Below, piece by piece: positions 1,608-26,569 of a stretch of DNA of 26,816 nucleotides (the first letter of the stretch is position 1; every line of letters starts with the position of its first letter). This stretch comes from Candidatus Eiseniibacteriota bacterium. Its GTDB lineage: Bacteria; Eisenbacteria; RBG-16-71-46; JABDJR01. The notes below the pieces were generated by a model, which searched no databases, was not told where the DNA came from, and saw only the letters and a program-made list of their open reading frames with translations. The position numbers and the translations under genes were made by a program. Where the stretch lies: the NCBI GenBank assembly GCA_963783375.1, contig CAWANH010000013.1, positions 1-26,816 of the forward strand. Direction: 5' to 3'.

Positions 1608-1635
1608 CGTCCACCTCCCTTGCTCGTCCCGGTCA

Positions 1636-2874: not shown

Positions 2875-3769
2875 GGTCCTTGCCCTCCTTTCCCTCGTCG
2901 TCCTCGCGGTTGAAGAACTTCATGATCCCTCCCAGGAATGCGAAGAGAGCGATGGGGGGGAGGAAGTTCTTGAAAATGCCGTGCTGGATGGTCTCGGTGA
3001 TCTGGGGCGGCGCCTTCTCGCCCAACTCGGGAAAACCGAGGTCCGTGAAAGGCCGGCTCGAGATGTAGAGCCAGGAGGTGCCGCCGACCTCGTGCTCCCC
3101 GTAGACGTGGTCCACGTACTGGCCGGGATGACCCTGGATCGTATCGTGGGCCAGGGCCAGGAGCTTCTCTCGCTTGCCGTAGGTCAGGCACTGGGGCGGG
3201 CAGATCTCCACGCAGGCCGGCACTCCGCCTTCCTTGCTGATGCGTTCGAAGCAGAACGTGCACTTCCGCACCTCGGGGGTGAACGCGTTGTCGTACTCAT
3301 AGGCGGGGATCTGGAAGGGACAGGCCACCATGCAATACCGGCAACCCATGCAACGCCAGGGATCGTAGGTGACCGCCCCGTTTTCCTTCTTCTGGAAGGC
3401 GGTCACGATGCAGGCAGAGGAGCAGGCCGGGTCGTTGCAGTGCATGCACTGGACCTTGGCCCACAGAGGCCGTTCCGAGCCCTCGGGTCCCGGGAACTGG
3501 TTGACCACCGTGTAGTGTCCGGCGTCGGGCCGTCGGTAGTCCTTGAAGATCGACTTGTCCTCGAACGTCTCCAACGGCTGAACGGGCAGATTGTTGGCCT
3601 GATTGCAGGCCCATTCGCACTTCCGGCAGCCGATACACTTGGAGATGTCCACGAGGACGCCGTACGCGTTCTCGGGGGCCTCCGCCACCCGGGAGGCTTC
3701 CGCCTTGCCGGCCACGACGCTGGCGGCGCAAATCCCCCCGGCCGTCTTGAGAAATTCCCTGCGTTTCAT
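2867..3769 (-). CDS. TAT-exported 4Fe-4S ferredoxin subunit (HybA/HmcB/NrfC-like) with C-terminal membrane anchor
   Basis: Start placed at ATG 3769, giving the twin-arginine signal MKRREFLK. Cys groups CIGCRKCEWAC, CMHCNDPACSSAC, CMGCRYCMVACP and KCTFC...PACVEICP. HybA-like YGEHEVGGTSWLY and a hydrophobic C-terminal helix. Confidence 0.93.
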   Translation of the reverse strand: MKRREFLKTAGGICAASVVAGKAEASRVAEAPENAYGVLVDISKCIGCRKCEWACNQANNLPVQPLETFEDKSIFKDYRRPDAGHYTVVNQFPGPEGSERPLWAKVQCMHCNDPACSSACIVTAFQKKENGAVTYDPWRCMGCRYCMVACPFQIPAYEYDNAFTPEVRKCTFCFERISKEGGVPACVEICPPQCLTYGKREKLLALAHDTIQGHPGQYVDHVYGEHEVGGTSWLYISSRPFTDLGFPELGEKAPPQITETIQHGIFKNFLPPIALFAFLGGIMKFFNREDDEGKEGKDHE

Positions 3770-4217
3770 CTCGTACCCCACCTTCAACCGCCCGAAGAGA
3801 GGGGTTTTCCCCGTCCCATCGGGGGTGCCAAATGGCCCCGGCGCGGCGGGGTCGGTGGTCCGAACCTCCGGTTGACCGGGGTTCGGCCACGGCGCGGTCT
3901 GCGCGTCCGCCACGCTCTCCCTGGGCGGAAACGGCCATATTCGCTTCCGACCCGAGGATACGCCCGGACCGAAAGGGTCACATGATTCCAATTGTGGATA
4001 TTGCTATTCCATACCGTTACAACTCCAGGAAATGATTAGACTTACCGCCGTTCTGAGGTAACGCCGGCTGCGGCTGGCCTGGTCGCGGAAGTTGTGGATT
4101 GAAGGGAAGCAAATGGAGCCGGTCTTATCGAGCGCACGGGTCCGGGGCATGGAACGCGGAGAAGAGCCTCGAATTTCGCGAATGAGAAACAAGGTTGTTC
4201 ACGGGAGGGGATCGGTC

Positions 4218-6992
4218 GTGAAACAAGTTGTGGCGATCGCCGCTCTCCTGCTCGTGGCCGCGCCGGGCTTGGCCCGCGCAACGGTCAACGAAACCTGCTT
4301 CGAGTGCCACTCCGATCCCGCCTTCAGCACCCGACGCGGAAACGTCACCGTCCCCTTGTTCGTGAGCCCGGAGGTTTTCGGGAAGTCGGTGCACAAGGGC
4401 CTCGACTGCACCGATTGCCATGCCGATGTCGATCCCGACGACCTGCCCCACGGCGAGGATCTGGAGCAGGTGCAGTGCGGGGCCTGCCACGACGACGCCC
4501 AGGCGCAGTACGAGGGAAGCATCCACGGCCAGGCCTGGGCCCGGGGGGCTCCGTACGCTCCGTCCTGCAAGGACTGTCACGGCACCCACGACATTCTTCC
4601 GCCCAGCGATCCCACCGCTCCGACCTACAAGATGAACGTCCCGTACCTGTGCGGAAGCTGCCACCGGGAAGGGGCGCCGGTGGCCAGGGCCTACAAGATC
4701 AACGAGCACAACATCGTTGAGAACTACAGCCAGAGCATCCACGGCGAGGCGCTGTTCAAGAAGGGTCTCACCGTCGCCGCCACCTGCATCGATTGTCACG
4801 GTAGCCACCATATTCTTCCTCACACCGACCCGAACGCCTCGATCTCGCCCAAGCACATCGCCGCCACCTGCATGCAATGCCACTCGCGCATCGAGCAGGT
4901 CCACGTGAAGGTGATCCGCGGGGAACTCTGGGAGGATAGACCGGGAGCCATTCCCGCCTGCACCGACTGCCACATACCCCACAAGGTCCGGAAGGAGATC
5001 GTGTCCCTCACGATGTCCGATCGCGACTGCCTGAAGTGCCACGAGCGGACCGATCTCCGGCATTCCGCGGCAGGCGACACCCTCTCGTTGACCGTGCGAA
5101 AGGACGACCTGGCCGCCTCCGTCCACCAGAACATCCCCTGCGTGAAGTGCCACTCGGACGTGGATCCCCGGCTCAAGCGACCCTGCGAGACCGCGGGTCG
5201 GGTGGACTGCTCGGCCTGTCACGCCAAGGTGTCGGAGGAGTACTTCGCGAGCGGCCACGGGCAGGCCTTCGTTTCCGGGAAGCCCCAGGCCCCCTACTGC
5301 ACCACCTGTCACGGCGATCACAAGGTCAAGGCGGTCAAGGAGGAGGACGCGAGGACCTATCGGGCCAACGTCCCCAAGCTCTGCGGGAGCTGCCACCGCC
5401 AGAACGGGAAGGCGCCGGAGGCCACGGATCTGGCCGAAGTGAACGCCTACTCGGACTACTCCAAGAGCGTGCACGGACGGGGATTGACCGAGAAGGGACT
5501 TCTCCCCAGCGCCATCTGCACCGACTGCCACACCGCCCACTTCGTGCTCAAGCACTCGGATCCGCGATCGTCGGTCTCCAAGAAGAACATTCCCGCCACC
5601 TGCGCCTCCTGCCATCGCGGGATCTACAACCAGTTCACCCAGAGCGTGCACTTTCCGGCCAACGGCCGGAACACGGAGAAGCTGCCCACCTGCACCGACT
5701 GCCATACCGCGCACACGATCTCGGACGTCGAAAAGGACCAGTTCATGACCGAGGTCACCCAGCAGTGCGGGTCCTGCCACACCGAGCTGGCCAAGACCTA
5801 TCTGGAGACCATGCACGGCAAGGCCTACCGGTTGGGCTACCTCAAGGCGGCCAAGTGCTCGGACTGCCACGGCGCCCACTCCATCGCCGCCATCAACGAC
5901 CCCAGATCGACGGTCAGCTTCCGTAACATCGTGGGCACGTGTCAGAAGTGCCACTCGGACGCCAACGTCCGGTTTACCGGCTACCTCACCCACGCCACCC
6001 ACCACGACCCGGTCAAGTATCCGATCCTCTACTACACGTACTGGGCCATGACCCTGCTGCTCTTCGGGGTGTTCGGCTTCTTCGGGGTGCACACCCTGAT
6101 GTGGCTGCCCCGGTCCTTCAAGGCCATGAAGGAAAGGCGGCGCCACAGCTGGGAGGAGGAAGGCAAGTACTTCGTCCGCCGCTTCTCGACCGGCCAGCGG
6201 GTGACCCACATCTTCGTGATCGTGAGCTTCCTGTCCCTCGCCCTGACCGGCATGATGCTCAAGTTCTCCTCCATGCCCTGGGCGGAGTTCTTGGCCGGGC
6301 TCCTGGGGGGGGTCCGCGTGGCCGGGGTCATCCACCGGATCGCCGCCACCATCACCTTCGGCTACTTCGCGTTCCACATCGGGAGCCTCATCCAGATGAA
6401 ACGCCGGCGGAGGATGAGCTGGAAGGAACTGGCCTTCGGCAGGAACTCCCTCATGTTCAACCTGAAGGACTTGAAGGACTTCCTGGGCACGCTGAAGTGG
6501 TTCTTCGGCCGGGGTCCGCGGCCGTCCTACGGGCGTTGGACCTATTGGGAGAAATTCGACTACCTGGCGGTGTTCTGGGGGGTGGCGGTGATCGGGGCCT
6601 CGGGGCTCATGCTTTGGTTCCCGGAGATCGCGACGAAGGTCCTCCCCGGCTGGCTCATCAACGTGGCCACCATCATCCACAGCGACGAGGCCCTCCTGGC
6701 CGTGGGCTTCATCTTCACCATCCACTTCTTCAACACCCACCTCCGGCCGGAGGCCTTCCCGATGGACACGGTGATCTTCACCGGCGTCACCCCGCTCAAG
6801 ACCTACAAGGAAGAGCGTCCGCAGGAATTCGACGAGCTCAGGAAGAGCGGCGACCTGGGAAAACGGGTGGTCATGCGGACCCGGGAGCAGAACCGCCAGG
6901 TCATGGTCCGGATCTTCGGGAGCCTGGCCCTGGCGGTGGGGGTGATCATGATCGGGCTCATCCTCTACTCGGTGATCTTCGGGTACAAGTAG
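4218..6992 (+). CDS. Multiheme cytochrome c (19 CxxCH) fused to a C-terminal cytochrome b membrane domain (CbcL-like quinol oxidoreductase)
   Basis: Likely GTG start at 4218 after GGGAGGGG, then signal peptide VKQVVAIAALLLVAAPGLARA. 19 CxxCH counted. The C-terminal FdnI/HydC-type cytochrome b domain has RFSTGQRVTH, IHRIAA, YWEKFDYLAVFWG and IHSDEALLA...IHFF. Confidence 0.92.
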   Translation: MKQVVAIAALLLVAAPGLARATVNETCFECHSDPAFSTRRGNVTVPLFVSPEVFGKSVHKGLDCTDCHADVDPDDLPHGEDLEQVQCGACHDDAQAQYEGSIHGQAWARGAPYAPSCKDCHGTHDILPPSDPTAPTYKMNVPYLCGSCHREGAPVARAYKINEHNIVENYSQSIHGEALFKKGLTVAATCIDCHGSHHILPHTDPNASISPKHIAATCMQCHSRIEQVHVKVIRGELWEDRPGAIPACTDCHIPHKVRKEIVSLTMSDRDCLKCHERTDLRHSAAGDTLSLTVRKDDLAASVHQNIPCVKCHSDVDPRLKRPCETAGRVDCSACHAKVSEEYFASGHGQAFVSGKPQAPYCTTCHGDHKVKAVKEEDARTYRANVPKLCGSCHRQNGKAPEATDLAEVNAYSDYSKSVHGRGLTEKGLLPSAICTDCHTAHFVLKHSDPRSSVSKKNIPATCASCHRGIYNQFTQSVHFPANGRNTEKLPTCTDCHTAHTISDVEKDQFMTEVTQQCGSCHTELAKTYLETMHGKAYRLGYLKAAKCSDCHGAHSIAAINDPRSTVSFRNIVGTCQKCHSDANVRFTGYLTHATHHDPVKYPILYYTYWAMTLLLFGVFGFFGVHTLMWLPRSFKAMKERRRHSWEEEGKYFVRRFSTGQRVTHIFVIVSFLSLALTGMMLKFSSMPWAEFLAGLLGGVRVAGVIHRIAATITFGYFAFHIGSLIQMKRRRRMSWKELAFGRNSLMFNLKDLKDFLGTLKWFFGRGPRPSYGRWTYWEKFDYLAVFWGVAVIGASGLMLWFPEIATKVLPGWLINVATIIHSDEALLAVGFIFTIHFFNTHLRPEAFPMDTVIFTGVTPLKTYKEERPQEFDELRKSGDLGKRVVMRTREQNRQVMVRIFGSLALAVGVIMIGLILYSVIFGYK

Positions 6993-8110: not shown

Positions 8111-9724
8111 GTGTCCATAGAGAAGGTCGGTCATCGCTCGCCGCGCGTCTTTGAAAAGGCCTACATTCCGCCCGAGGAAGGCACGGGCATTCCCGGCACC
8201 GGCCGCTCGGCGTTGTTCTACCAGAATCGCAGCCGCCTCCCCACCGTCAGCCACGGACGGGGGATCTACATCTACGACACCGAGGGAAAACGCTACCTGG
8301 ACGGGTGCAGCGGCGCGGTATCGGCCAACCTGGGGCACGGCAACCCCCGGATCCTGCAAGCGGCCCGGGCACAGATGGAGAAGATCGCCTTCGCCTACCG
8401 CCTCCAGTTCGAGAACGAACCGGCCAACGACCTCGCCGAGCTTCTCGTTCGGCTCTCCGTCCCCGAGCTGAACCGGGTGTTCTTCGTCAACTCCGGGTCC
8501 GAGGCGGTGGAGAGCGCGGTCAAGCTGGCCCGGCAGTTCTGGTGGGCCACCGGCCGCCAGGGGAAGACCCGCTTCATCTCCCGCCGGCCGTCCTTCCACG
8601 GGGCCACTCTCGGCGCGCTGGCCCTGACCAGCTATGCCCCCCTGAACATCCCCTTCAGCCCCAATACGGTGGAGTCTCCCAAGATCGCAGCGCCGTTCTG
8701 TTACCACTGTCCCCTGGGCAAGGAGTATCCCGGGTGCGGGGTCGCCTGCGCGTGGGAGCTGGAGGAAACCCTGGACACCCTGGGACCGGAGAACGTGGCC
8801 GGGTTCATCGCCGAACCGATCGGTGGCTCCACCACCGCGGCCGCGGTCCCCCCGGACGAGTACTTCACGATCGTGGAGGGGATCTGTCACGACCGCGAGG
8901 TGCTCCTGATCATCGACGACGTGATGACCGGCTGCGGGCGTACGGGAACCTTCTACGGCTACGAGCACTGGGACATCACCCCGGACATCGTGGCCACGAG
9001 CAAAGGGCTGTCCGCGGGCTACGCCCCCATCGGGGCCATCGTGGCCAGCGATGCGGTGGTGGAGCCGGTGCTGGAGAGCGGCGGCTTCATGCACGGCCAT
9101 ACCTATGCCGGAAATCCCCTGTCCACCGCCATCGCCCTGGAGGCGGTGCGCATCATCCTCGACGACAACCTGATGGAAAACGCGCGGGAAACCGGGACCT
9201 ACCTGCACGAACGTCTCCACGAGCTCAAGGCCCGGCATCCCGTGGTCGGGGACGTCCGCGGCCGGGGCCTCATGGCGGGGGTGGAGTTCGTCCGGGACCG
9301 GGTGGCCCGGGTGCCCTTCCCCGCCGGCTGGTTCGTGGCCCTGGAGGCCACCGAGATCGCTCGTGGACACGGCCTCCTGGTCTATCCCCGCCGCTCCCTC
9401 AACGGGCTCTCCGGGGATCACGTGCTCATCGCCCCTCCGCTCATCATGGACCGGGAAGGGGTGGACGAACTCATCGAGCGATTCGACCGCACGCTCTCCG
9501 ACCTCATGAAACTGCTCCACCGCTACCTGGAGGCCGAGGCTCCCGCCTTCCGCGACACCACGGTGCGGCGCTATCACCAGGCCGAACAGCTTCCCGACTA
9601 TGCCATCGGCAACCTGGAAGCAATCGAACCCGCCGCCGACGCCAACGTGACCGGCGCCATGGAGCAGGGCGATTTCGGCCGGCTGGACCCCTCCGAGGAC
9701 GGGGAACGGGACGGCGACAAGTGA
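8111..9724 (+). CDS. Class III PLP-dependent aminotransferase, YodT-like
   Basis: Motifs YLDGCSGAVSANLGHG, AFAYRLQF, FFVNSGSEAVE, SFHGATLGAL, FIAEPIGG, DDVMTGCGRTG, the PLP lysine in SKGLSAGY, HGHTYAGNP and IAPPLI. Start at GTG 8111 after GAGGGA is tentative; the ORF track extends it to 7871. Confidence 0.9.
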   Translation: MSIEKVGHRSPRVFEKAYIPPEEGTGIPGTGRSALFYQNRSRLPTVSHGRGIYIYDTEGKRYLDGCSGAVSANLGHGNPRILQAARAQMEKIAFAYRLQFENEPANDLAELLVRLSVPELNRVFFVNSGSEAVESAVKLARQFWWATGRQGKTRFISRRPSFHGATLGALALTSYAPLNIPFSPNTVESPKIAAPFCYHCPLGKEYPGCGVACAWELEETLDTLGPENVAGFIAEPIGGSTTAAAVPPDEYFTIVEGICHDREVLLIIDDVMTGCGRTGTFYGYEHWDITPDIVATSKGLSAGYAPIGAIVASDAVVEPVLESGGFMHGHTYAGNPLSTAIALEAVRIILDDNLMENARETGTYLHERLHELKARHPVVGDVRGRGLMAGVEFVRDRVARVPFPAGWFVALEATEIARGHGLLVYPRRSLNGLSGDHVLIAPPLIMDREGVDELIERFDRTLSDLMKLLHRYLEAEAPAFRDTTVRRYHQAEQLPDYAIGNLEAIEPAADANVTGAMEQGDFGRLDPSEDGERDGDK

Positions 9725-10413
9725 TCGACCGGGTTACCGAGGCCCCGGAGGCGGTTCGGCGCCATCTCGCTCCCGGACAAGCGGTGATGGTGGGGGGCTT
9801 CGGCCGGGGCGGGGTTCCGTTCACCCTGGTCGAGATCCTGGCCGGACAACCCGATCGCTACCGCGATCTCACCCTGATCAAGAACGACGCCAGCGAACCC
9901 GGCCTCGGGATCGACCTGCTCCTGAGGGCGGGGATGGTGACCAGGCTCGTTTCCACCCACATCGGACTCAACCCGGAGTTCATCGGGCAGATGAACCGCG
10001 GCGAGGTGGTGTGCGAGCTGGTCCCCCAGGGCATCTTTGCCGAGCGCATCCGGGCCGGGGGGGCGGGGATCCCCGGTTTCCTCACCGACATCGGGCTCGG
10101 AACCGAGGTCGCGGGCGGAAAGCCCACCGTGGTCCTCGACGGCCGCACCTACCTCCTGGAACGGGCCCTCAGGGGGGACGTGGCCCTGATCGGGGCCGAC
10201 GTGGCCGACCGGGCCGGAAACGCCTGGTGGCGGGGCTCCAACCGCAACATGAACCCCCTCATGGCCACCGCCTGCGACCGGGTGGTGGTGGAGGCCCGGC
10301 GGATCGTCCCGGTGGGGGAGTTGGAGCCGGAAAACGTCCACCTGCCCGCGGTGTTCGTGGACGCAGTGGTGCAGGCGGAAACGCCCCCCCATCTCCGGAG
10401 GGCGACGTCTTGA
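9721..10413 (+). CDS. 3-oxoacid CoA-transferase subunit A (family I; YodS/AtoD/ScoA-like)
   Basis: GTG overlaps the upstream stop (GTGA). Motifs VMVGGFG, STHIGLNP, ELVPQGIFAERIRAGGAGIPGF, DVALI, ADRAGN, NMNPLMA and VHLPAVFVD. Confidence 0.93.
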   Translation: MIDRVTEAPEAVRRHLAPGQAVMVGGFGRGGVPFTLVEILAGQPDRYRDLTLIKNDASEPGLGIDLLLRAGMVTRLVSTHIGLNPEFIGQMNRGEVVCELVPQGIFAERIRAGGAGIPGFLTDIGLGTEVAGGKPTVVLDGRTYLLERALRGDVALIGADVADRAGNAWWRGSNRNMNPLMATACDRVVVEARRIVPVGELEPENVHLPAVFVDAVVQAETPPHLRRATS

Positions 10414-11081
10414 GCTTCGACCGGGCCCTCTCTCCCGCCGACGAGGTCATCGTGCGACGCGCGGTGCGCGAGCTCGAGAGCGGCATGACCGTGAACCTGG
10501 GGATCGGTATGCCCACCTATCTTCCCCGCTTCCTCCCCCCGGAGGTGGACGTGGTGTTCCACTCCGAAAACGGGTTCGTGGGGATGGGCCCGCCCCTCGA
10601 GGCCGGGACGCCCGACCACGATGTCATCGACGCCGGGGGGCGGGCCTGTACCCTGCTTCCGGGCGCGGCCTGCTTCGACAGCCTGCTCTCCTTCGCCATC
10701 GTGCGGGGGGGAAACCTGGATCTGGCCGTCCTCGGCGCCTTCGAGGTGAGCGTGACCGGCGATCTGGCCAACTGGAAGATCCCGGGGAAACTTACTCCCG
10801 GAATGGGAGGAGGGATGGAGCTGGCCCAGAAAGCCAACCACCTGCTCGTGGTCTCCCGTCACCTGGACAAGCAGGGGCGGGCGAAGCTCAGGGCCCGATG
10901 TGACCTTCCTCTCACCGCCCCCGCGTGCGTGGGCACCCTGATCACCGAGCGCGCCGTTTTCCGACGGCGCGACGGCCGGCTGCGGTTGGCGAGCCTCCAC
11001 CCCGACCACACCCTCGCATCCGCCCTGGAGGCGGTGGACGTCGAGGTGGAGACGGACGGCCCGCTCGTCCCCTGGGCCTGA
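10410..11081 (+). CDS. 3-oxoacid CoA-transferase subunit B (YodR/AtoA/ScoB-like)
   Basis: TTG start overlaps the upstream TGA, after GGAGG. Motifs VNLGIGMPT, catalytic HSENG, SFAIVRGGNLD, GDLANW, GMGGGMELA, CDLPLT and ITERAVF. Confidence 0.93.
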   Translation: MSFDRALSPADEVIVRRAVRELESGMTVNLGIGMPTYLPRFLPPEVDVVFHSENGFVGMGPPLEAGTPDHDVIDAGGRACTLLPGAACFDSLLSFAIVRGGNLDLAVLGAFEVSVTGDLANWKIPGKLTPGMGGGMELAQKANHLLVVSRHLDKQGRAKLRARCDLPLTAPACVGTLITERAVFRRRDGRLRLASLHPDHTLASALEAVDVEVETDGPLVPWA

Positions 11082-11118
11082 CCCGCCGGGGGATCCCGCC
11101 GGCCGGAAAGGAGCGGAC

Positions 11119-12423
11119 ATGACACGACCGTCTGAACTCGATCTCGCCGGAGCGGTGGCCGCCCGCCGGGAGTGGGCGCTGGACGTCCTTCGCACCCTGG
11201 TCCGCGAGCCGACCGTGCTCGGACACGAGCGCACCGGCCAGGACCGCGTGGCCGCGATCTACGAGGAGCTCGGCTTCGAGCCCCGGTTCGAGCCGATCGA
11301 CGAGGCCCGGCTGCGCGGGCTTCCCGGCTTCGGGGCCACGGACTGGGAGCTGGATGGAAAGATGAACCTGGTCGCGGTGCATGAGCCGCCGAACCCCCAG
11401 GGGCGGAGCCTCATCCTGAACGGCCACATCGACGTGGTTAGCCCCGAGCCCACCGTGCTCTGGTCCACGCCTCCCTTCGAGCCGGTGCTCCTGGAGGACG
11501 ACGAGGACGGCGAGACCTGGCTCCGGGGACGTGGGGCCGGCGACATGAAGGGGGGCACGGTGAGCTTCCTCTGGGCCCTGGCCGCTCTCGGCGATCTGGG
11601 ACACGCCCCCGGCTCCCGCCTGGTTCTCCAGTCCCCGGTGGAGGAGGAGTGCACCGGAAACGGGACCCTGGCTCTGCTCGCCGCCGGCCACACCGCCGAC
11701 GCCGCGGTGATCCCCGAGCCCTTCGCGGAAACCCTCCTCGTCCACCAGGTGGGGGTGATGTGGTTCGACGTCCGGGTGCTCGGACGCACCACCCACGTGC
11801 TGGGGGCGAGCCGGGGGGTGAACGCGATCGAGAAGTCCTGGGTGATCCTCCGGGCGCTCCGGGCCCTGGAAGAGGAGCTGAACCGCCCCGAGGTGATTCC
11901 CGAGGGTTACCGCGCCGTGGAGCATCCCCTGAACCTCAACGTGGGGGTGATCCGCGGCGGCGACTGGGCCAGCACCGTGGCCGGGGAGTGTACGATCCGC
12001 TACCGGATCGGGCTCTTTCCCGGCCAGCGCCTGGACGAGCTCAAGCGAAGGATCGAGAGCCGGGTGGCCGAAGCCGCCGCCGGCGACGACTGGCTCCGGA
12101 CGTCGCCCCCCCGGGTCTCCTACGTGGGCTTCCAGGCCGAAGGGGCGAGCTTCGATCCGGAATGCGACGCGGGTCGGGCCCTGACCGCCGCCCACCGGGC
12201 CTGGCGCGGGGGCGCCCCCGAGGCGCTCGCCGCCACCGCCACCACCGACGCCCGGTTCATGAATCTCTACCACGACATCCCCGCCACCTGCTACGGGCCC
12301 AAGGCGGTGGCCATTCACGGGGTGGACGAGAAGGTGAGCGTGGACTCCATGCAGCGGGTGGCCGAGGTGCTCTCCACCTTCGTGACCGACTGGTGCGGCC
12401 TGGCCCCGAGGAGGCGTCGATGA
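11119..12423 (+). CDS. ArgE/DapE-family (M20) deacylase, YodQ-like
   Basis: RBS AAGGAG. Metal-binding motifs GRSLILNGHIDVV, GRGAGDMKGG, EEECTGNG, IPEP and IHGVDE. Confidence 0.92.
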   Translation: MTRPSELDLAGAVAARREWALDVLRTLVREPTVLGHERTGQDRVAAIYEELGFEPRFEPIDEARLRGLPGFGATDWELDGKMNLVAVHEPPNPQGRSLILNGHIDVVSPEPTVLWSTPPFEPVLLEDDEDGETWLRGRGAGDMKGGTVSFLWALAALGDLGHAPGSRLVLQSPVEEECTGNGTLALLAAGHTADAAVIPEPFAETLLVHQVGVMWFDVRVLGRTTHVLGASRGVNAIEKSWVILRALRALEEELNRPEVIPEGYRAVEHPLNLNVGVIRGGDWASTVAGECTIRYRIGLFPGQRLDELKRRIESRVAEAAAGDDWLRTSPPRVSYVGFQAEGASFDPECDAGRALTAAHRAWRGGAPEALAATATTDARFMNLYHDIPATCYGPKAVAIHGVDEKVSVDSMQRVAEVLSTFVTDWCGLAPRRRR

Positions 12424-13589
12424 AGTTCCGTGAAGCGGTGGGGATCGCCGCGCCGATCCGCACCCCCATGGGCAGGCTGGCCGGGGCTCTGGCCCCGGTG
12501 GAGCCGTTCCAGCTCCTGGCCCACGTCCTTCGCGCGGCAAGCGAACGCACCGGCTCCCACCGTCCCGACGAGGTGATCGCGGGGAACGTCAGGAACTCCA
12601 TCGGCAACATCGCCCGGGTGGCCGCCCTGGAGGCGGGCCTGGGGGTGGACGTTCCCGCCGTCACCGTGGATCGCCAGTGCGCCTCCAGCCTGGAAGCCCT
12701 GGTCTCCGCCGCCGCGCGCATCCAGGCCGGGATGGCCGAGCGGATCCTGGTGGGCGGGGTGGAGAGCGCCAGCCGCTGTCCGTGGCTCTTCGAGAAGACC
12801 GCGCGTCCCTACGCGTATTTCGAGCCCCGCCCCTACCCGATCCACCTGGCTCCGGAGTCGGTGGGGGACCCCTCCATGGGGGAGACCGCGGAGATCCTGA
12901 GCGACGAGTTCGGGATCGAGCGCGAGGCCATGGACCGCTTCGCGGTGGAGAGCCACCGTCGGGCCGCCGCGGCCTACGACCGGGGGGACTTCGCCGATGA
13001 GGTGGTGCCGGTCCCCGTTCCCGGCCGGAAGGGAGCGGCGAACCAGGTGGACCGTGACGAGACCGTCCGCCCCGACACGTCCTTCGAGGCCCTGGCCGGG
13101 CTCCCCCCCGCCTTTCGCCGGGACGGGCGGGTCACCGCGGGCAACAGCTCACCGCTCTCCGACGGGGCTTCGGCCTGCTGGGCGGCCTCCCCCCGGGCCC
13201 TGGAGGCGGATGGGATCGCCCCCGCGGCCTGGCTCACCGGGGCGGTCACCGTGGCCCTGGAGCCCCGCCGGATGGGCATGGGGCCCGCCCTGGCCGTTCC
13301 CCGGCTCCTTCGGGAGCACGGTTTGACCGACGACGACATCGATCTCTACGAGATCAACGAGGCGTTCGCCGCCCAGGTCCTGGCGGTGAACCGGGAGCTT
13401 CACATTCCGCCCGGGAAGCTCAACGTGAACGGGGGAGCGGTGGCCCTCGGACATCCCTTCGGGGCCACCGGAGTGCGTCTGGTGGCCACCCTGGTTCACG
13501 CTCTTCGCCGTCGAGGCCTCCGCCGGGGAGTGGCCTCGCTCTGCATCGGGGGAGGCCAGGGCATGGCCGTTCTCCTGGAGATTCCATAG
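12420..13589 (+). CDS. Acetyl-CoA C-acyltransferase (thiolase)
   Basis: ATGA overlap with the upstream stop. Motifs RTPMG, catalytic RQCASSL, GGVES, MGETAE, TAGNSSPLSDGA, EINEAFA, NVNGGAVALGHPFGATG and LCIGGGQG. Confidence 0.95.
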   Translation: MKFREAVGIAAPIRTPMGRLAGALAPVEPFQLLAHVLRAASERTGSHRPDEVIAGNVRNSIGNIARVAALEAGLGVDVPAVTVDRQCASSLEALVSAAARIQAGMAERILVGGVESASRCPWLFEKTARPYAYFEPRPYPIHLAPESVGDPSMGETAEILSDEFGIEREAMDRFAVESHRRAAAAYDRGDFADEVVPVPVPGRKGAANQVDRDETVRPDTSFEALAGLPPAFRRDGRVTAGNSSPLSDGASACWAASPRALEADGIAPAAWLTGAVTVALEPRRMGMGPALAVPRLLREHGLTDDDIDLYEINEAFAAQVLAVNRELHIPPGKLNVNGGAVALGHPFGATGVRLVATLVHALRRRGLRRGVASLCIGGGQGMAVLLEIP

Positions 13590-13701
13590 CCCGACCTCGT
13601 TCATGAATCCGCCGCACCGGGTTCGTGAATCGGCCGGGCCGGCTTCGCGCCGGGGCCTCGGCGGCCGTGAACCCGAGGCCCCGTCCGGAAAGGACACCGT
13701 C

Positions 13702-15003
13702 ATGAGCATGCCGAACCGCGTCAGCCGCGAACTTCTGGAGCGCCGGGCCGCCGCGGTCCCACGGGGACCGTTCAACGCCTTTCCCGTCTTCGTCGATCGT
13801 GCCCTGGGGGCCCGGCTCTGGGACGTGGACGGCCGGGAGTACCTGGACTTCGCCGGCGGGATCGGCACCATGAACGTGGGGCACAATCATCCACGGGTCG
13901 TGGAGGCGATCCGCGTCCAGAGCGGGCGGTTCCTGCACACCTGCTGGCACGTTGCCATGTACGAGGGGTACGTGCGGCTGGCCGAGCGGCTGAACGCCCT
14001 GGCCCCGATGACCGGCGCGCGGAAGACCGCGTTCTTCAACAGCGGGGCCGAAGCGGGGGAGAACGCGGTCAAGATCGCCCGCGTGTTCACCGGACGGAAG
14101 GCGGTGGTGGGCTTCGAGCGCGGCTTTCATGGCCGCACTCTCCTCGGCATGACCCTGACCGGGAAGGTCCGTCCCTACACCGCCGGCTTCGGGCCCTTCG
14201 CCCCCGAGATCTACCGGCTTCCCTACCGGCCTTTCTTCGCCCCCGGCCGGGAGGCCTCCGACGATGCGGTGCGGGCGGGGGCCAGGGCCGCCCTGGACCG
14301 GTTGTTCCACTACCACGTGGAGCCGGAGGAGATCGCGCTCCTCATCCTGGAGCCCGTGCTCGGAGAGGGTGGGTTCTTCCCGGTTCACCCGGCCGCCCTG
14401 GACGTGCTCGGGGAAGCCTGCCGGGAGCACGGAATCCTCCTGGCCGCCGATGAGGTGCAGACCGGAATGGGCCGGGCCGGGGCGATGTTCGCGATCGAAC
14501 GCTACGGCGTGACCCCGGACCTGGTGCTCACCGCCAAGTCCCTGGGCGGAGGGCTGCCGCTCTCCGCGGTGACCGGCCCCGCGGAGATCATGGACGCCCC
14601 GCCGGTGGGCGGGATCGGCGGAACCTTCGGGGGGAATCCGGTGGCCTGTGCGGCCGGGAACGCGGTGCTGGACGTGCTGGAGGAGGAAAAGCTCCCGGAA
14701 CGGGCGAGGTCGATCGGGGACCGGGTCATGGCGCGGTTCGAGGGGCTCCGGGAATCGCTGCCCCACGTGGCCGACGCCCGTGGGCTGGGGGCGATGTGCG
14801 CCCTGGAGATCGTGGACCCCGGGAGCGGTTCTCCCGATCCCGGAAGGACGGCGAGGATCCTGGATGGGGCCCGGGAGCGCGGCCTCCTCGTCATGTCGGC
14901 GAGCGGAAACGTGATCCGCACCCTGATGCCGTTGGTCATCACCGATCCGGAGCTGGAGCGGGGACTGGCGATCCTGGTCGAGGCGACGGAGCAGGCGGCC
15001 TGA
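13702..15003 (+). CDS. gabT: 4-aminobutyrate--2-oxoglutarate transaminase (GABA/5-aminovalerate transaminase)
   Basis: RBS GAAAGGA. GabT motifs DFAGGIGTMNVGHNHP, FLHTC, FFNSGAEAGENAVKIAR, FHGRT, LTGKVRPY..GFGPF, EPVLGEGGF, DEVQTG, AKSLGGGLPLS and GGTFGGNPVAC. Confidence 0.9.
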   Translation: MSMPNRVSRELLERRAAAVPRGPFNAFPVFVDRALGARLWDVDGREYLDFAGGIGTMNVGHNHPRVVEAIRVQSGRFLHTCWHVAMYEGYVRLAERLNALAPMTGARKTAFFNSGAEAGENAVKIARVFTGRKAVVGFERGFHGRTLLGMTLTGKVRPYTAGFGPFAPEIYRLPYRPFFAPGREASDDAVRAGARAALDRLFHYHVEPEEIALLILEPVLGEGGFFPVHPAALDVLGEACREHGILLAADEVQTGMGRAGAMFAIERYGVTPDLVLTAKSLGGGLPLSAVTGPAEIMDAPPVGGIGGTFGGNPVACAAGNAVLDVLEEEKLPERARSIGDRVMARFEGLRESLPHVADARGLGAMCALEIVDPGSGSPDPGRTARILDGARERGLLVMSASGNVIRTLMPLVITDPELERGLAILVEATEQAA

Positions 15004-15111: not shown

Positions 15112-16917
15112 CTATTGCGTTGCCACGGGCAGACGCAGCTCGACGGTGCGGCGAAGCTGAGCAAGGTCGTCCAGGAACCGCTTCCGGCCCTCCTCGATGA
15201 ACCCGTCGGTCAGGCGGCGATAGTACTCCATCCCGCTCAACAGGTTGTCCCTGAACTCCCGGAGATCCTCCATTGCGCGTGCGGATGGCCTGAGCGAACA
15301 CCTGTCGATTTCCTTCCGGAAGTGGTCGACGTAGAGTCCGAGCTCCCGGATGAACATGTGTGGGCGATCGGCCGGGGTGTCGAGCGACTTGCGTCCGTAG
15401 ATGTGATCGACCATCTCCTGCAGGGTGGCAAGCTTGGACAGGTTCACGATCCCCGGGCCGCAACACATCGCGGGGGTGGCGTCCGGATCGATGCCGCACT
15501 TGACCAGGGCCCCGCCGGCCAGGTCCCGGCAGAGGCAGACCTTGGCGAGAACGGTTTCCATCGCGTCGGAAAGACGGTCGGCCGGGAGGTTCGCGGCCCG
15601 AAGCTGTTTGATCTTCCGTCCCTGGTAGTTCTGCGAGGCGGGACAGATCGGAACGTCGGTGAATTCGGTGTTGGATACGAGAAACCCCATCAGACAGGGG
15701 CTCCCGGGACGACCCTGCTGGATGCGCCGCCGCCGGCGCTCCTCGCTGGCCGATGAGCGAAGGTTCCAGAACGGGACGCCGAGCGGGGAACTGTCGCTCA
15801 GATACACGTCCCGGTCCGTGGCCCCGGCCAGCTTGTCCAGGTGCGCCTCGTCGACGTTCGTCACCTCCGGCACGAGCAAAAAGGGCGTACCCCAGCCCGT
15901 GCCGTCGACGTTGTAGTACTTCAGGAGGAGCTCGTTCTCGGTGGCGGTTCCGATTCCCCCTTGCGCCGTGATGCGCAGTTCGTGGGGCGTGTCGACCCGC
16001 GGCCGGCCCAGGGCGGCCAGGGCCCGGTTGTAGATATCGTGGAACATCTCGACCAGTTCCCGCCGGTTCTGCTTGAACTCCTCCAGGATCGGCCCCATCA
16101 GGTACCCGTTGGTGGCGAAGGTGTGGCCGCCGCAGTTGAGCCCCGATTCGATGCGGTATTCGGAAACCCACAGACCGCGCTTCGCCAGGTACTTGCCCTG
16201 GATCATCGCGGAGCGGAAGTCGCTCACCTTGAGGATGATCTGTTTCCGGAGTTGGCCGCTTCCGTCCGGGAAGAAATCGGCGAACCGGGAGAGATAGGCG
16301 TAGAGGTGGGGATTCATGCCCGCGGAGAAGATGATCGAGGATCCGAGGGTACTGTTGGCGTAGCCCCGCAACGCCGAAATCGCGGCGCCCGATTCGGGCG
16401 GGAGCTTCCGGCCGGGGCGGTACCGGTCGCCGTCGATCCGGGACATGATGTTCACGTCGATCTTGCCCGGCACCGCGCGACGCCGAAGCTCATCCTGCAT
16501 CCGGGTCTTCTCGACCGGGTCGTCGGTGGTCAACATGTCGCGGTAGGCCCGCTTCAGCGGGGTTTCCGGCAGCAGTTCGTAGTAGCGGGTGATCTCCGCG
16601 CCTTCCTCGAAGGGGGAGCCCTGGAGCTCCTTCGACTGGCGCCCGACCAGGCGATCGATGAGGTTCAGGTAGGCGGTGATCCTCCTGGCCCGCGCATCCT
16701 CGTCCCGGTCGGAGATCTCCTCGTAGGGTTCATCCTGCCCGTCGCAGTGGAACATCCGCATCTTCTCGACGAGGGTGTCGTCCATGAGCGAGATCACGGA
16801 TGAAATGCCGTACTTGGCCACCCGCAGGGGGGTGTCGACGGTGAACCCGGTGCCCATCACCGGGACATGGAAGGTGTGTGCGCTTCGCAAGGTCGAGCCA
16901 GTCATTCTGAACTCCAT
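15112..16917 (-). CDS. Conserved hypothetical protein with nitronate-monooxygenase/FabK-like FMN-barrel motifs and a Cys-rich C-terminal part
   Basis: 601-aa ORF with globular composition. Motifs HVPVMG, IIFSAG, IESGLNCGGH, ITAQGGIGT and GWGTPFL. Cys residues in SPCLMG, PICPAS, KVCLC and MCCGP. Start may be 16917 or 16905. Confidence 0.8.
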   Translation of the reverse strand: MEFRMTGSTLRSAHTFHVPVMGTGFTVDTPLRVAKYGISSVISLMDDTLVEKMRMFHCDGQDEPYEEISDRDEDARARRITAYLNLIDRLVGRQSKELQGSPFEEGAEITRYYELLPETPLKRAYRDMLTTDDPVEKTRMQDELRRRAVPGKIDVNIMSRIDGDRYRPGRKLPPESGAAISALRGYANSTLGSSIIFSAGMNPHLYAYLSRFADFFPDGSGQLRKQIILKVSDFRSAMIQGKYLAKRGLWVSEYRIESGLNCGGHTFATNGYLMGPILEEFKQNRRELVEMFHDIYNRALAALGRPRVDTPHELRITAQGGIGTATENELLLKYYNVDGTGWGTPFLLVPEVTNVDEAHLDKLAGATDRDVYLSDSSPLGVPFWNLRSSASEERRRRRIQQGRPGSPCLMGFLVSNTEFTDVPICPASQNYQGRKIKQLRAANLPADRLSDAMETVLAKVCLCRDLAGGALVKCGIDPDATPAMCCGPGIVNLSKLATLQEMVDHIYGRKSLDTPADRPHMFIRELGLYVDHFRKEIDRCSLRPSARAMEDLREFRDNLLSGMEYYRRLTDGFIEEGRKRFLDDLAQLRRTVELRLPVATQ

Positions 16918-17233: not shown

Positions 17234-18395
17234 CTAGTGTCTTGCGCCAGAAATAACTATACATCCGGAGTCCCATGCGGCATGCTCCTCCAAAAGGAGG
17301 GTTGCCATGTCACGTGGACGCACGCTCGAGTCGCTCAGGCTTTCTACCGAAGAACGTCAGGTACTCCAGGGTTGGGCACGCCGCCCCAAGACGGCGCAAG
17401 GACTTGCCACCCGTGCCCGCATCGTGCTTCTCGCGGACGAGGGGTGGACCAATTCCGCGGTGGCCGAGCACCTTCACATCACCCGGGTCACGGTCGGCAA
17501 GTGGCGCTCGAACTTTCTTGAGCGCCGACTCGACGGGCTCACCGATGAGCCTCGCCCCGGAGCTCCTCGCAAGGTCTCCGATGCAGAGGTTGAACGCGTC
17601 ATCGCAAAAACCCTCGACTCGACACCCAGGGGAGCCACCCACTGGAGTACCCGCTCCATGGCGGAGGTCTCGGGAATGAGCGCCACCACCGTGCGACGCA
17701 TCTGGCACACCTTTGCGCTCCAGCCTCACCGGGCCGATACCTTCAAGCTTTCCAATGATCCCCTGTTCATCGACAAGGTACGCGATGTCGTGGGGCTGTA
17801 CATGGATCCACCGGAGCGGGCGCTCGTGCTGTGCGTGGACGAGAAGTCCCAGATCCAAGCTCTCGACCGCACACAGCCTCTCCTGCCGTTACGACCAGGG
17901 CAGTGCGAACGGCACACGCACGACTACGTTCGCCACGGCACCACGACCCTGTTCGCTGCGCTGGACGTGAAGTCCGGGCGAGTCATTGGAAGTCTTCACA
18001 AACACCATCGAGCGAAAGAGTTTCTCGGCTTCCTGAAAACGATCGACGCCGAGGTCCCCGATGACCTCGACGTTCACCTCATCCTCGACAACTACCAGAC
18101 CCACAAGGTGCCCGCGGTGAAGCGGTGGCTCGTTCGAAACCCGCGCTTCCACCTCCACTTCACGCCGACCTACTCCTCCTGGATGAACCTCGTCGAGCGG
18201 TGGTTTGCCGCACTGACCGACAAGGCGCTACGTCGAGCCACTCATCGGAGCGTCAAACGGCTCAATCAGGCTATCAAGCTCTACATCGAGGTTACCAACC
18301 AGAGCCCCAAGCCCCTCGTGTGGACAAAATCTGCAGATGAGATCCTTGCCTCAATTGCTAGATTCTGTAAACGTACTTCCGACGCATGACACTAG
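17234..18395 (+). mobile_element. IS630-family insertion sequence (about 1.16 kb)
   Basis: CTAG at both ends. Terminal inverted repeats CTAGTGTCTTGCGCCAGAAATA versus CTAGTGTCATGCGTCGGAAGTA (reverse complement of the right end), 18 of 22 identical. Encloses one transposase and looks less GC-rich than the flanks. Confidence 0.95.
17307..18389 (+). CDS. IS630-family DDE transposase
   Basis: RBS AAGGAGG. HTH region (RARIVLL...TVGKWR...LTDEPRPGAP, THWSTRSMA). Catalytic D (CVDEKSQIQAL), D (LILDNY) and E (WMNLVERWF), plus YVRHGT and FTPTYSSW. Confidence 0.97.
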   Translation: MSRGRTLESLRLSTEERQVLQGWARRPKTAQGLATRARIVLLADEGWTNSAVAEHLHITRVTVGKWRSNFLERRLDGLTDEPRPGAPRKVSDAEVERVIAKTLDSTPRGATHWSTRSMAEVSGMSATTVRRIWHTFALQPHRADTFKLSNDPLFIDKVRDVVGLYMDPPERALVLCVDEKSQIQALDRTQPLLPLRPGQCERHTHDYVRHGTTTLFAALDVKSGRVIGSLHKHHRAKEFLGFLKTIDAEVPDDLDVHLILDNYQTHKVPAVKRWLVRNPRFHLHFTPTYSSWMNLVERWFAALTDKALRRATHRSVKRLNQAIKLYIEVTNQSPKPLVWTKSADEILASIARFCKRTSDA

Positions 18396-18437
18396 GAATC
18401 CCGGTCGGAGACGCCCCGTGACTTCTCCTCGGTCTTG
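18392..18437 (+). repeat. Right copy of the 46-bp direct repeat (3' end of the 11-heme cytochrome gene)
   Basis: Identical to 17188-17233. On the minus strand it encodes KTEEKSRGVSDRDS-stop. Confidence 0.97.
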
Positions 18438-20371
18438 TGAGGCCGCCGGCGTCCCTCGTCGTCGCCCTCGTAGATGATGTCCGCCTCGGTGGGCATGTCC
18501 GCCGGGTGCTCCTCTTCGTAGAGCTCGGCCGGCATCTTCCCGGTGACCCACGCGGGGTTCCCCGGATAGACCCCCGGCCGGAACACCGTGAAGTAGAAGT
18601 GCCAGATGGCGATGGCCAGGGTGGCCAGGACGGCCTCGTAGAAGTGGATCACCAACATGACGTCCAGGAAACCCTTGTGGAGGATCTTCACCGCGGCGTT
18701 GTCGAACCAGAGGGAGAGGCCGGTCAGGGTCATGACCACCGTGCCCCAGACCAGGGCCCAGTATTCGGCCTTCTCGATGAAGCTGAACCGTCCGAAGCGA
18801 GGGGGGGACTTGCGCCTCCCCAGGTTGAAGAAGACCATGTGGAGGAACTCGAAGACGTCCTTCATCGAGGGGAGCATGCCCTTGCCGAAGCGGGCGCCGT
18901 TCCTGGTCCGGAGATAGAGGAGATGCCAGACCGAGGAGAAGATGAGCACCACGGCGGCGGTGCGATGGATGAGGCCCCGGACCCGGAACCCGCCGTCCCA
19001 ACCGAACAGGCTCCGGAAGACCCATCCCTCGGAGTAGCGCAGGGCAAAGCCGGTGATCACCAGAACGATGAAGGACACGGTGAGGAGGCTGTGCTGGAAG
19101 ATGGCGTTGGCGTCCATTCGCCTCACCATCGGCTTGGACAGCATCTCCCGGTTCTTCTTTCGGATATCCAGGATGACGTAGGCGACCATTCCGCCGATGA
19201 TCAGGACGATGAGCACCAGGTAGAGCTTGGTGAAGAATTCCGCCCAGCCCGTCCGCATTCCCGCGTTGCTGACGTGAATCTTGGTCTGGGCGATCTGGGT
19301 GCTGATCGCCGGGTGGCATTGACCGCAGGTCTTCTGCAGGTTGGCGGGGTTGATGGAAGAGGTGGGGTCGCTGCTGGGCAGGATGCGATGGGCCCCGTGA
19401 CAGCTCGCGCAGTTGGCCACCGTGATGTCGCCGGCCCGGCTCTTGAGTCCGTGGAAGGAGTCGATGAACGTGGCCAACCGACCGGCGGGGATTCCGTACT
19501 TCTCGTTGAGCCGGGCCGACTCGTGGCAGGGAGCGCAGGTGGCCTCGGCCACCTGGGTCGGGCTCACGTTGGACCGCGGATCGGTGGGGGGCAGGATCCC
19601 GTGCTCGCCGTGGCAGTCGGTGCAGACCGGGGTATCGGTTTCGCCCCGGGCGGTGAGCTGGCCGTGGATCCCTTCCCAGTAGTCCTGCTCGATCCCGCGG
19701 TGGCACTGGCCGCAGGTGTTGGGGATGTTGAAGTGATTGATGCTGGACCGGGAGTCCCCGGGGCCCAGGATCTGGTGCGCGGTGCCCTCGGTGGAGTGGC
19801 AGTCGGTGCAGGTCGCGGCCACGTAGACCCCGCCCAGCGCCGCCTTCCCGTGCACGCTGGCTTCGTAGACCTCCACCGGCCTCTTGAGCAGGATGTCGTG
19901 CTTCTTGGCGAGGTCGAGATCCTGGTGGCACCGGCCGCAGGTGGCGGAGAGGTGGGTGGGGTTGGTCGAGGAGTCGCGTTTGCTGGAGGGGAGGATGTCG
20001 TGGGATCCGTGGCAATCGGCGCACTCCGGAATGTCTTCGGTCACCCCGACTACCCCCCGGCCGTGCCGGGTGTACATGTCGGATTCTTCGGTGTGGCAGG
20101 ACCGGCAATCGACCTTGGCCAGGGTGTCGGGATGGGGGATCTCCTCGATGTCGGCGTGGCAATCGATGCAGGCGAAGGTCGCATGGGAGGACTTGCCCAG
20201 CATCTCCGCGGTCACCTTGGGGACGGCGGGATCGTCGCCGTTGTGGCACATGGCGCAGTCGTCGTTGGTGATCTCGGCTGCGGCCGAGAACGATCCCCTT
20301 GCCGCTCCGAACACCGCGACGCCCACCAAAACCGCGGCCGCGATCCAGGCCCTCTGCCGGAAGTTCCTCAT
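18392..20371 (-). CDS. Multiheme cytochrome c (11 CxxCH) fused to a cytochrome b membrane domain (CbcL-like)
   Basis: Signal peptide MRNFRQRAWIAAAVLVGVAVFG. 11 CxxCH counted. Cytochrome b domain with FQHSLL, LIHRTAA, FSFIEKAEYWALVWG and IHFYEAVLA...WHFY. Confidence 0.93.
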   Translation of the reverse strand: MRNFRQRAWIAAAVLVGVAVFGAARGSFSAAAEITNDDCAMCHNGDDPAVPKVTAEMLGKSSHATFACIDCHADIEEIPHPDTLAKVDCRSCHTEESDMYTRHGRGVVGVTEDIPECADCHGSHDILPSSKRDSSTNPTHLSATCGRCHQDLDLAKKHDILLKRPVEVYEASVHGKAALGGVYVAATCTDCHSTEGTAHQILGPGDSRSSINHFNIPNTCGQCHRGIEQDYWEGIHGQLTARGETDTPVCTDCHGEHGILPPTDPRSNVSPTQVAEATCAPCHESARLNEKYGIPAGRLATFIDSFHGLKSRAGDITVANCASCHGAHRILPSSDPTSSINPANLQKTCGQCHPAISTQIAQTKIHVSNAGMRTGWAEFFTKLYLVLIVLIIGGMVAYVILDIRKKNREMLSKPMVRRMDANAIFQHSLLTVSFIVLVITGFALRYSEGWVFRSLFGWDGGFRVRGLIHRTAAVVLIFSSVWHLLYLRTRNGARFGKGMLPSMKDVFEFLHMVFFNLGRRKSPPRFGRFSFIEKAEYWALVWGTVVMTLTGLSLWFDNAAVKILHKGFLDVMLVIHFYEAVLATLAIAIWHFYFTVFRPGVYPGNPAWVTGKMPAELYEEEHPADMPTEADIIYEGDDEGRRRPHKTEEKSRGVSDRDS

Positions 20372-20924
20372 CCCCTCATCTCCTTGCCGCTTCGGTCAGT
20401 CTCGCCGTCCGCGAATCCCGGCGGCCTCGGCGGTACACACCGCGCTCCCGGTCCGCCGCGAACCAAAGCATGAATTTCCGTTCGGCAGGGAGTGTATCGG
20501 CGTTGGAACGGCCTGTTCCCATCCATTCTCAGGATAAACGTGATCTATGACCGTCCGAACCGGCGTGATTCCAAGGCATTGTGGCCGTGGGGGATGTGGG
20601 AGGGCCGGCGGTCGCGGCCTCGACGCGACGAAGGGCGGCAACGTGGGCGGGACGGGAAACCCGTCGATCGATCCCTTCCGGTGAAACGGGTTGTTTCGTC
20701 GCCGGGGCCAGGGCGGCCGCGGCCGGGGCGGAACCCGGCCTCCTCCCGGCCCGGTTTCGGCCGTTCCCCGGAAGCCGGACAACCCGGTGCGGAACCCTCT
20801 GGGCCTGCTAGACTAGGCGCACCCCCTCCGACACGCGCCCACCACCGCCCGTCCGGTCCCTTCGGCCGCGGCGAGGATGGGGGTGCGTTCCCACTGCCAG
20901 GGCTTGCCGGCGAGGACTCCATCC

Positions 20925-23585: not shown

Positions 23586-23643
23586 CCGGGGCCCTCCAGG
23601 CACCGCCGCCCGTCGATCCGGGCTCCTCCGGCGCCGGCTTCGA

Positions 23644-24594: not shown

Positions 24595-25073
24595 GGGGTC
24601 TCCTCCATCTCCACCAGGGGCGCTCCCGCCGCGACCTGGTCCCCCTCGGCGGCGAGCAACCGTTTCACCCGCCCCGCGCGCGGGGCCTTGATCTCGAGCT
24701 GCATCTTCATGGCCTCGACCACCACCAACGGCTGGTGCGTTTCCACCGCGTCTCCCGTCGCGACCAGCACCTTCTGCACCTGCCCCGGCATGGGAGAAGC
24801 CAGGCCTCCACCCAAGTCCCGGGCCCGTCCGCGCCCGCGGTCCATCTGAAAACAGTAGGTGCGCCCCCGCCAGCGGACCCAGATCGTCTCGCCTTCCCGG
24901 GCCGCTTCGGCGTGGTGACGGCCGGTCGGGGTCTCCACCGCATAGCTCCCGTCGGGGAGCCGGAGCACGGTGATCGACCTCGCAGGTTCGTCCGGACCGA
25001 GCACCGTGATCTCGCCGGGCGCGTCGCGGCGTGCCCGGAAGACCTCGCCTTCCCGGTTGAGCTTCACCTCCAC
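24591..25073 (-). CDS. Biotin carboxyl carrier subunit (BT-like region plus BCCP) of an acyl-CoA carboxylase, probably methylcrotonyl-CoA carboxylase
   Basis: SPMPGQV and the biotinylation motif VEAMKMQ. GTG start 1 nt after the upstream stop, preceded by GGGGAGG. Confidence 0.88.
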   Translation of the reverse strand: MEVKLNREGEVFRARRDAPGEITVLGPDEPARSITVLRLPDGSYAVETPTGRHHAEAAREGETIWVRWRGRTYCFQMDRGRGRARDLGGGLASPMPGQVQKVLVATGDAVETHQPLVVVEAMKMQLEIKAPRAGRVKRLLAAEGDQVAAGAPLVEMEETP

Positions 25074-25074
25074 G

Positions 25075-26568: not shown

Positions 26569-26569
26569 C

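Follow-up and report, generated by a model that had tools for sequence, protein, structure and literature searches.

Beta-lysine breakdown in Pseudomonas B4 was reportedly shown by Barker to proceed via N6-acetyl-beta-lysine, 3-keto-6-acetamidohexanoate and 4-acetamidobutyryl-coenzyme A (CoA), with EC 2.6.1.65 and 3.5.1.51 among the activities. Here we describe a six-gene cassette that quite probably constitutes a conserved unit degrading N-epsilon-acetyl-beta-lysine, the substrate being predicted to be self-made from a separate kamA-like/ablB operon. The cassette occupies positions 8111..15003 of a 26,816 nucleotide (nt) stretch (the window) at the start of contig CAWANH010000013.1, from the Candidatus Eiseniibacteriota bacterium assembly GCA_963783375.1. 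The presumed substrate widely serves methanogens and other anaerobes as an osmolyte, and shows little turnover in methanogens (accessible part of PMC1224877). A literature search returned no paper assigning genes to its breakdown, most subscription journals, including Bastard et al. 2014, being outside its reach; that study, which concerns the BKACE family, may already discuss the gene contexts described below. Nothing relevant was found in the available portions of 10.1101/2021.12.09.472016, NetSyn, the PMC5743806 supplement, the PMC10221552 main text and PMC12361552.

The closest described gene cluster is that of Bacillus, with the order yodT-yodS-yodR-yodQ-ablB(yodP)-ablA(kamA)-yokU in an annotated B. 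velezensis record. In the accessible parts of the sources, annotation of B. subtilis yodT, yodS and yodR has not gone beyond putative enzymes (PMC10221552 supplement; PMC6522883) and yodT is SigE-dependent (PMC6522883). The window cassette shares with this cluster an aminotransferase, both CoA-transferase subunits and an M20 deacylase, of the same families and in the same order, and its proteins are 43, 48, 48 and 32% identical to B. velezensis YodT, YodS (47.5% before rounding), YodR and YodQ, respectively. Unlike the Bacillus cluster, it is not joined to ablB and kamA (ablB and a kamA-like gene are found on contig C29 of the same genome), it has thiolase and gabT as standard members, and its host context is not that of a SigE-controlled gene in a spore-former. 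The six genes are as follows:

8111-9724, + strand: class III (fold I) aminotransferase, YodT-like, 537 amino acids (aa), PF00202; predicted N6-acetyl-beta-lysine 3-transaminase
9721-10413, + strand: family I 3-oxoacid CoA-transferase subunit A, YodS-like; TIGR02429, 199 bits (cut-off 128.5)
10410-11081, + strand: 3-oxoacid CoA-transferase subunit B, YodR-like; TIGR02428, 237 bits, just below the cut-off of 243.55; SENG catalytic motif
11119-12423, + strand: M20 ArgE/DapE-family deacylase; PRK06837, 453 bits (cut-off 376); predicted deacetylase of 4-acetamidobutyrate or its CoA ester
12420-13589, + strand: thiolase (acetyl-CoA C-acyltransferase); TIGR01930, 422 bits (cut-off 240.55); predicted to cleave 6-acetamido-3-oxohexanoyl-CoA
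13702-15003, + strand: GabT, 4-aminobutyrate transaminase; TIGR00700, 520 bits (cut-off 506.65)

The six open reading frames (ORFs) are consecutive and co-directional. A preliminary description of the window had reported these families and three overlapping junctions, all of which are confirmed by the ORFs, by Pfam and NCBIfam profile searches with curated cut-offs, and by motif checks. The stop/start overlaps are GTGA (9721-9724), TTGA (10410-10413) and ATGA (12420-12423); the remaining two junctions are gaps of 37 nt and 112 nt. The aminotransferase begins with a GTG codon preceded by AGGGAG, and alignments with close homologues run from residue 1. For GabT, the most likely start is the ATG at 13702, upstream of which lies GGAAAGGA and where homologue alignments begin, rather than the longer ORF start at 13603. 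Catalytic motifs are intact: the pyridoxal phosphate-binding Lys298 and Asp269 of the aminotransferase are invariant in the alignment, CoA-transferase B retains the SENG glutamate, the M20 deacylase has its metal ligands (closest solved structure 3PFO), the thiolase has its Cys/His/Cys motifs, and GabT carries FHGR and GEGG. No sigma-70 promoter and no above-chance terminator were found, and no Rfam family was detected in the window or the ablB region.

The cassette recurs well beyond this genome. Among 13 genome loci with an aminotransferase 61-94% identical to that of the window, two are cut by contig ends; in the 11 others (counts rest on tblastn rather than gene-caller output), both CoA-transferase subunits and M20 are present in all, GabT in ten and thiolase in eight, indicating that the cassette is not a chance assembly. 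One locus (L012) retains all six genes despite an inversion, and thiolase is missing from L001, L003, L009 and the C1 copy discussed below, so that it is dispensable in some relatives. By title, the hosts of the 13 loci are Eisenbacteria, Krumholzibacteriia, Planctomycetota, Acidobacteriota, Geobacteraceae, Polyangia, Sumerlaeota and one alphaproteobacterium; among named records, a Candidatus Eisenbacteria (L002) is the closest, its aminotransferase being 88% identical. This aminotransferase occurs in three of four genus members, in 0/57 other relatives of the window's genome and in 0/150 relatives of the planctomycete host, and outside the genus the genes flanking the cassette differ between loci. 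The cassette is probably patchy and mobile.

We infer every substrate, and the order of the steps, as follows. The aminotransferase would remove the C3 amine to give 6-acetamido-3-oxohexanoate, a product that the N6-acetyl group would keep from cyclising. The CoA-transferase would activate this 3-oxo acid, likely with 4-acetamidobutyryl-CoA as CoA donor, and the thiolase would generate that donor together with acetyl-CoA. Deacetylation by M20 would follow, on either the free acid or the CoA ester, and the resulting 4-aminobutyrate (GABA) would be converted by GabT to succinate semialdehyde, the substrate for a dehydrogenase. The purpose might be to draw down stored osmolyte or to use lysine as food. 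N6-acetyl-beta-lysine, 6-acetamido-3-oxohexanoate, 4-acetamidobutyryl-CoA and GABA, along with separate first and last transaminases, are all predicted to be shared with Barker's pathway, and the genome encodes a beta-lysine N6-acetyltransferase (AblB; TIGR03827, 212 bits, cut-off 205) and a GABA transaminase. The scheme differs from Barker's in having CoA-transferase and thiolase in place of a cleavage enzyme, and in the likely origin of the substrate, which the organism itself would form from lysine.

Evidence for the free 3-oxo acid and the N-acetyl group comes from parts of the cassette that are swapped elsewhere. We compared 100 related loci, comprising the best 80 of 555 metagenome loci and 20 of 23 high-scoring alphaproteobacterial loci. 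A CoA-transferase is present in 37 and a BKACE (DUF849), filling the same slot, in 35; none has both, and many of the 28 with neither come from short contigs or hold a more distant homologue. A thiolase gene is found within 8.5 kb at 13 CoA-transferase loci and at none of the BKACE loci. No BKACE is encoded in the window operon, and single-query searches of its genome gave no match for BKACE (tblastn) or for a kce-type gene of clostridial lysine fermentation. BKACEs take free 3-oxo acids; the mutual exclusion of CoA-transferase and BKACE therefore suggests that transamination likely yields the 3-oxo acid in free form, and it supports the earlier proposal that CoA-transferase plus thiolase replace the keto-acid cleavage enzyme. 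The deacylase slot holds either M20 or an unrelated histone-deacetylase-family (HDAC-type) protein, and the Shinella locus (transporter-aminotransferase-BKACE-GNAT-HDAC) has an extra GNAT, a pattern that points to an N-acetyl substrate. Some BKACEs act on 6-acetamido-beta-ketohexanoate in vitro (PMC4922564 S1 table, columns taken from the PDF layout of the part available). Together with this activity, the swaps suggest that the donor is an N-acetylated beta-amino compound, of which a four-carbon remainder is finally turned into GABA. The remark in the preliminary description that no genes were known for these steps is too strong for the cleavage step; we found no other gene-level assignment.

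Kat, the 3-aminobutyryl-CoA transaminase of a variant lysine fermentation, is likewise a beta-transaminase beside a thiolase in lysine-derived catabolism, and is HemL-like and acts on CoA esters (accessible part of PMC3149608). In contrast, the top families of the window aminotransferase are PRK06917 and PRK07483, none of the 25 best models listed being HemL (a comparison made by description), and BKACE, the swap partner of window-type aminotransferases, needs a free keto acid.

The substrate would be supplied from contig C29, where genes for a MarR regulator, a KamA-family radical SAM protein, AblB and an amino-acid ABC transporter all run in one direction. The KamA-like protein scores above the cut-off of the general model TIGR00238 and keeps CxxxCxxC-R as well as residues aligned to D293, D330 and K337 of 2A5H, whose functional roles in lysine 2,3-aminomutase we take as given. 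An IS630 element in the window (17234-18395) has a 100% identical copy on C29, consistent with the two contigs belonging to one organism. It is likely that this genome makes its own N-epsilon-acetyl-beta-lysine via the C29 operon; the absence of kamA and yodP noted in the preliminary description thus applies to the operon and not to the genome.

The same pairing is seen in other hosts. Full-length ablB (E<=1e-55) is found in 12 of the 13 genomes with this aminotransferase clade, above the cut-off in ten, and the only genome lacking it is the alphaproteobacterial one; when close kin are counted once, about 10 of 11 lineages have it. A KamA-family gene lies within approximately 4 kb of ablB in 11 of the 12 positive genomes. 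Background frequencies are 0/57 relatives outside the genus, 11/300 genomes in the phylum of genome G070 and 2/150 relatives of genome G064. The dependence is one-way: ablB usually accompanies the cassette, and the reverse does not hold. As a predictor of the cassette ablB was rejected, the cassette aminotransferase clade being present in 0/11 and 0/2 of the ablB-positive background genomes.

These data bear on whether the same chemistry serves mainly to scavenge N-epsilon-acetyl-beta-lysine released by methanogens and other anaerobes. Such a role would suit an operon lacking kamA and ablB, as well as one relative in which a proVWX osmolyte transporter lies divergently upstream of the cassette (L007:4794-7938, - strand), alphaproteobacterial relatives with amino-acid ABC transporters, and the contig pieces, approximately 90-93% alike, in two salt-marsh runs from two studies. 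(Identical pieces were also found in two soil runs of one study, possibly the origin of the window itself.) However, ablB is encoded in this genome and in 12 of the 13 genomes of the clade, a KamA-family gene being next to it in most; the operon contains no transporter gene, and the amino-acid ABC transporter belongs to the biosynthetic operon. We therefore consider scavenging an unlikely main role, and find no support for the preliminary suggestion that this operon may scavenge the methanogen osmolyte. For the 23 alphaproteobacterial genomes with a related aminotransferase, in which ablB is absent, scavenging is plausible. The cultured genera Shinella and Parasedimentitalea (L311:5985-13851 and L314:4843-14641) carry the order ABC transporter-aminotransferase-BKACE-(GNAT)-HDAC together with a gene for a LysR regulator. 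The BKACE of Shinella exceeds the cut-off of the 3,5-dioxohexanoate-type family. Operons of the aminotransferase-BKACE-GNAT-HDAC type are closer to Barker's scheme than the window cassette is. We lean, by a little, towards a division in which organisms that make the osmolyte (those of sediments, and Bacillus) reuse it by way of CoA-transferase and thiolase, and marine and soil Alphaproteobacteria, unable to make it, import it and use the cleavage enzyme with an HDAC-type deacetylase.

In Bacillales, these genes are physically linked to those for biosynthesis. A PRK06917 match above the cut-off is obtained for the B. subtilis control and for 60 of the 121 genomes sampled from the order, and 16 yodT loci were hand-picked from these across the score range. 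These contain CoA-transferase (16), M20 (15), ablB (14), aldehyde dehydrogenase (9, identified at that level, GabD identity not verified), gabT (4) and thiolase (2), and in three gabT lies between the yod core and ablB. One locus (L278), with the order ABC transporter-yodT-S-R-thiolase-M20-gabT-aldehyde dehydrogenase, holds the whole set of the window plus a transporter and a dehydrogenase. The gabT/thiolase extension of the window is therefore also joined to biosynthetic genes elsewhere. The neighbourhood survey advised earlier showed co-occurrence with ablB in nearly all genomes of the clade, and with gabT, aldehyde dehydrogenase and thiolase in some Bacillales yodT clusters. The route first put forward in the preliminary description gains from ablB co-occurrence, the Bacillales gene sets and the N-acetyl deacylase pattern, every substrate in it being deduced from genes.

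Phylogenetic trees (fast methods, rows more than 88% identical collapsed) place the window aminotransferase in a starred 15-row clade nested in a 66-row clade whose enzymes are linked to CoA-transferase or BKACE. A separate starred clade is formed by Bacillus YodT, and the two fall in one larger starred group with an unresolved base. An F-x-Y-R (Tyr-Arg) signature, defined within the present analysis, marks this group: Arg97 of the loop is present in 60/60 rows of the window clade, Bacillus YodT and the BKACE/CoA-transferase relatives, and in 0/20 sister and outgroup rows. From alignment with omega-transaminases, this loop may shape substrate binding. A C-terminal extension of approximately 65 residues (window 9520-9724) is common to the clade and has no Pfam match; in a predicted structure (pLDDT 76.5, pTM 0.81) its pLDDT is near 80 over residues 471-510. 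Foldseek matched this model to generic omega-transaminases only, and structure prediction and Foldseek together gave no substrate information.

A different N-acylated beta-amino acid, or a mixture of beta-amino acids, might instead be degraded, with the ablB link reflecting a shared salty habitat; candidates are beta-glutamate/beta-glutamine, 3-aminobutyrate or the product of a second KamA-like enzyme encoded on contig C28. Class III aminotransferases are promiscuous, sister-clade aminotransferases occur with CoA-transferase, thiolase or BKACE in genomes lacking ablB (0/7), and the C28 KamA-like protein, which has no equivalents of D293/D330, adjoins a second YodT-like enzyme. Yet these substrates need neither a deacylase nor GabT, both of which are near-constant cassette members; the sister clades lack Arg97, and Bacillales join the same gene set to ablB. 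We regard another substrate as improbable.

Less probable still is that the operon merges two modules, in which aminotransferase, M20 and GabT would convert N-acetylputrescine or another omega-amine via 4-acetamidobutyrate to GABA, and CoA-transferase and thiolase would serve acetoacetate use. The closest solved structures to the aminotransferase are omega-transaminases, including putrescine aminotransferases (31-36% identity), thiolase is lost in several relatives, and YodS and YodR are not reciprocal best hits of the window pair. However, such a route requires an aldehyde dehydrogenase to link its first two steps, and no gene in the operon encodes one. The CoA-transferase and aminotransferase genes are translationally coupled, BKACE cleanly replaces the CoA-transferase in related loci, and the genome has a separate CoA-transferase/thiolase cluster on contig C17.

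Several observations weigh against degradation of self-made N-epsilon-acetyl-beta-lysine by a yod-type cassette. The C29 KamA-like protein is far below the AblA cut-off (257, cut-off 525); ablB or kamA lies within the flanks of 0/80 metagenome loci, and ablB is absent from all 23 alphaproteobacterial genomes with a related aminotransferase. Salty habitats may be what both ablB and the cassette follow, and related genomes do not count as independent cases; a Fisher test was set aside, since both kinship and habitat inflate it. A canonical GabD (best TIGR01780 score 414, cut-off 646) and a 4-hydroxybutyryl-CoA dehydratase were not found in the genome. As to kinship with Bacillus, the aminotransferase lies outside the YodT clade, its best NCBIfam model is PRK06917 at 481 bits (cut-off 535), and its positions 427-428 are RR, versus mostly AA in Bacillus YodT. 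The M20 deacylase, besides its low identity to YodQ, scores 262 against PRK06915 (YodQ; cut-off 428), for which B. velezensis YodQ scores 742; in the best tree it is separated from YodQ and groups with other cassette M20s, a single M20 + YodQ clade not being rejected by the approximately unbiased (AU) test (p=0.084). B. velezensis YodS and YodR match the housekeeping pair on C17 slightly better. From the shared Arg97, the clade placement and this lack of reciprocity, the cassette likely functions like the yod cluster and is not a strict member of it. The yodTSRQ-like core of the preliminary description accordingly stands for families, order and Arg97 and fails for the strict YodT clade, the cut-offs and YodS/YodR reciprocity; the aminotransferase and deacylase are related to YodT and YodQ at a broader level.

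If degradation of self-made N-epsilon-acetyl-beta-lysine is correct, the cassette would supply genes for the N6-acetyl-beta-lysine transaminase and deacetylase of Barker's pathway, and allow B. subtilis YodTSRQ to be assigned; the wider division between producers and importing Alphaproteobacteria, if it holds, would also show where a major osmolyte of methanogens is consumed in the environment. A beta-amino-acid transaminase belonging to a new specificity class would also be of interest for biocatalysis. The comparative pattern makes osmolyte breakdown and yodTSR function questions that can be assayed, and cultured hosts are available in Bacillus species, Shinella sp. HZN7 (shn_RS25025-25060) and Parasedimentitalea marina W43.

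Other features of these genomes were observed during the analysis. A divergent KamA subfamily (L094:10231-11718, L298, L303-L305, L307 and L308) is far below the AblA cut-off, lies at or near ablB in most of those loci and keeps the lysine-aminomutase residues; it is likely an unrecognised AblA type. In three unrelated genomes, a sodium:solute symporter gene between kamA and ablB (L297:7163-8632, L298:3752-5203 and L301:12740-14176) encodes a candidate lysine or acetyl-beta-lysine transporter. The C28 operon (approximately 820.6-825.1 kb; L092:9576-14052) includes the second YodT-like aminotransferase (42% identity, outside the Arg97 clade, present in 4/4 genus members), a cupin, the KamA-like radical SAM protein and a carbon-nitrogen hydrolase, and is a candidate aminomutase pathway for another beta-amino acid.

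A syntenic duplicate of window 1-26816 is present in the same assembly (G000:C1:125217-148871), with approximately 94% identity in the flanks and 85-88% in the operon, many indels, and neither thiolase nor IS630. As the whole window is duplicated with many indels, a true second operon was rejected; the copy is probably a co-assembled related strain rather than a paralogue.

The operon flanks are unrelated to it, with multiheme cytochrome genes upstream and a convergent gene of no known family downstream. The latter (window 15112-16857, - strand) is an ORF of approximately 580-600 aa that matches no Pfam or NCBIfam family and is conserved both in L001 and in the C1 copy. The multiheme cytochrome cluster (window 483-6992 and 18392-20371) encodes HmcB/HmcC-like proteins, a cytochrome c3 and two multiheme-cytochrome b fusions. 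Window 20877-26790 encodes a beta-propeller protein with a FlgD-Ig tail; next come HMGL-like, biotin carrier and biotin carboxylase genes.

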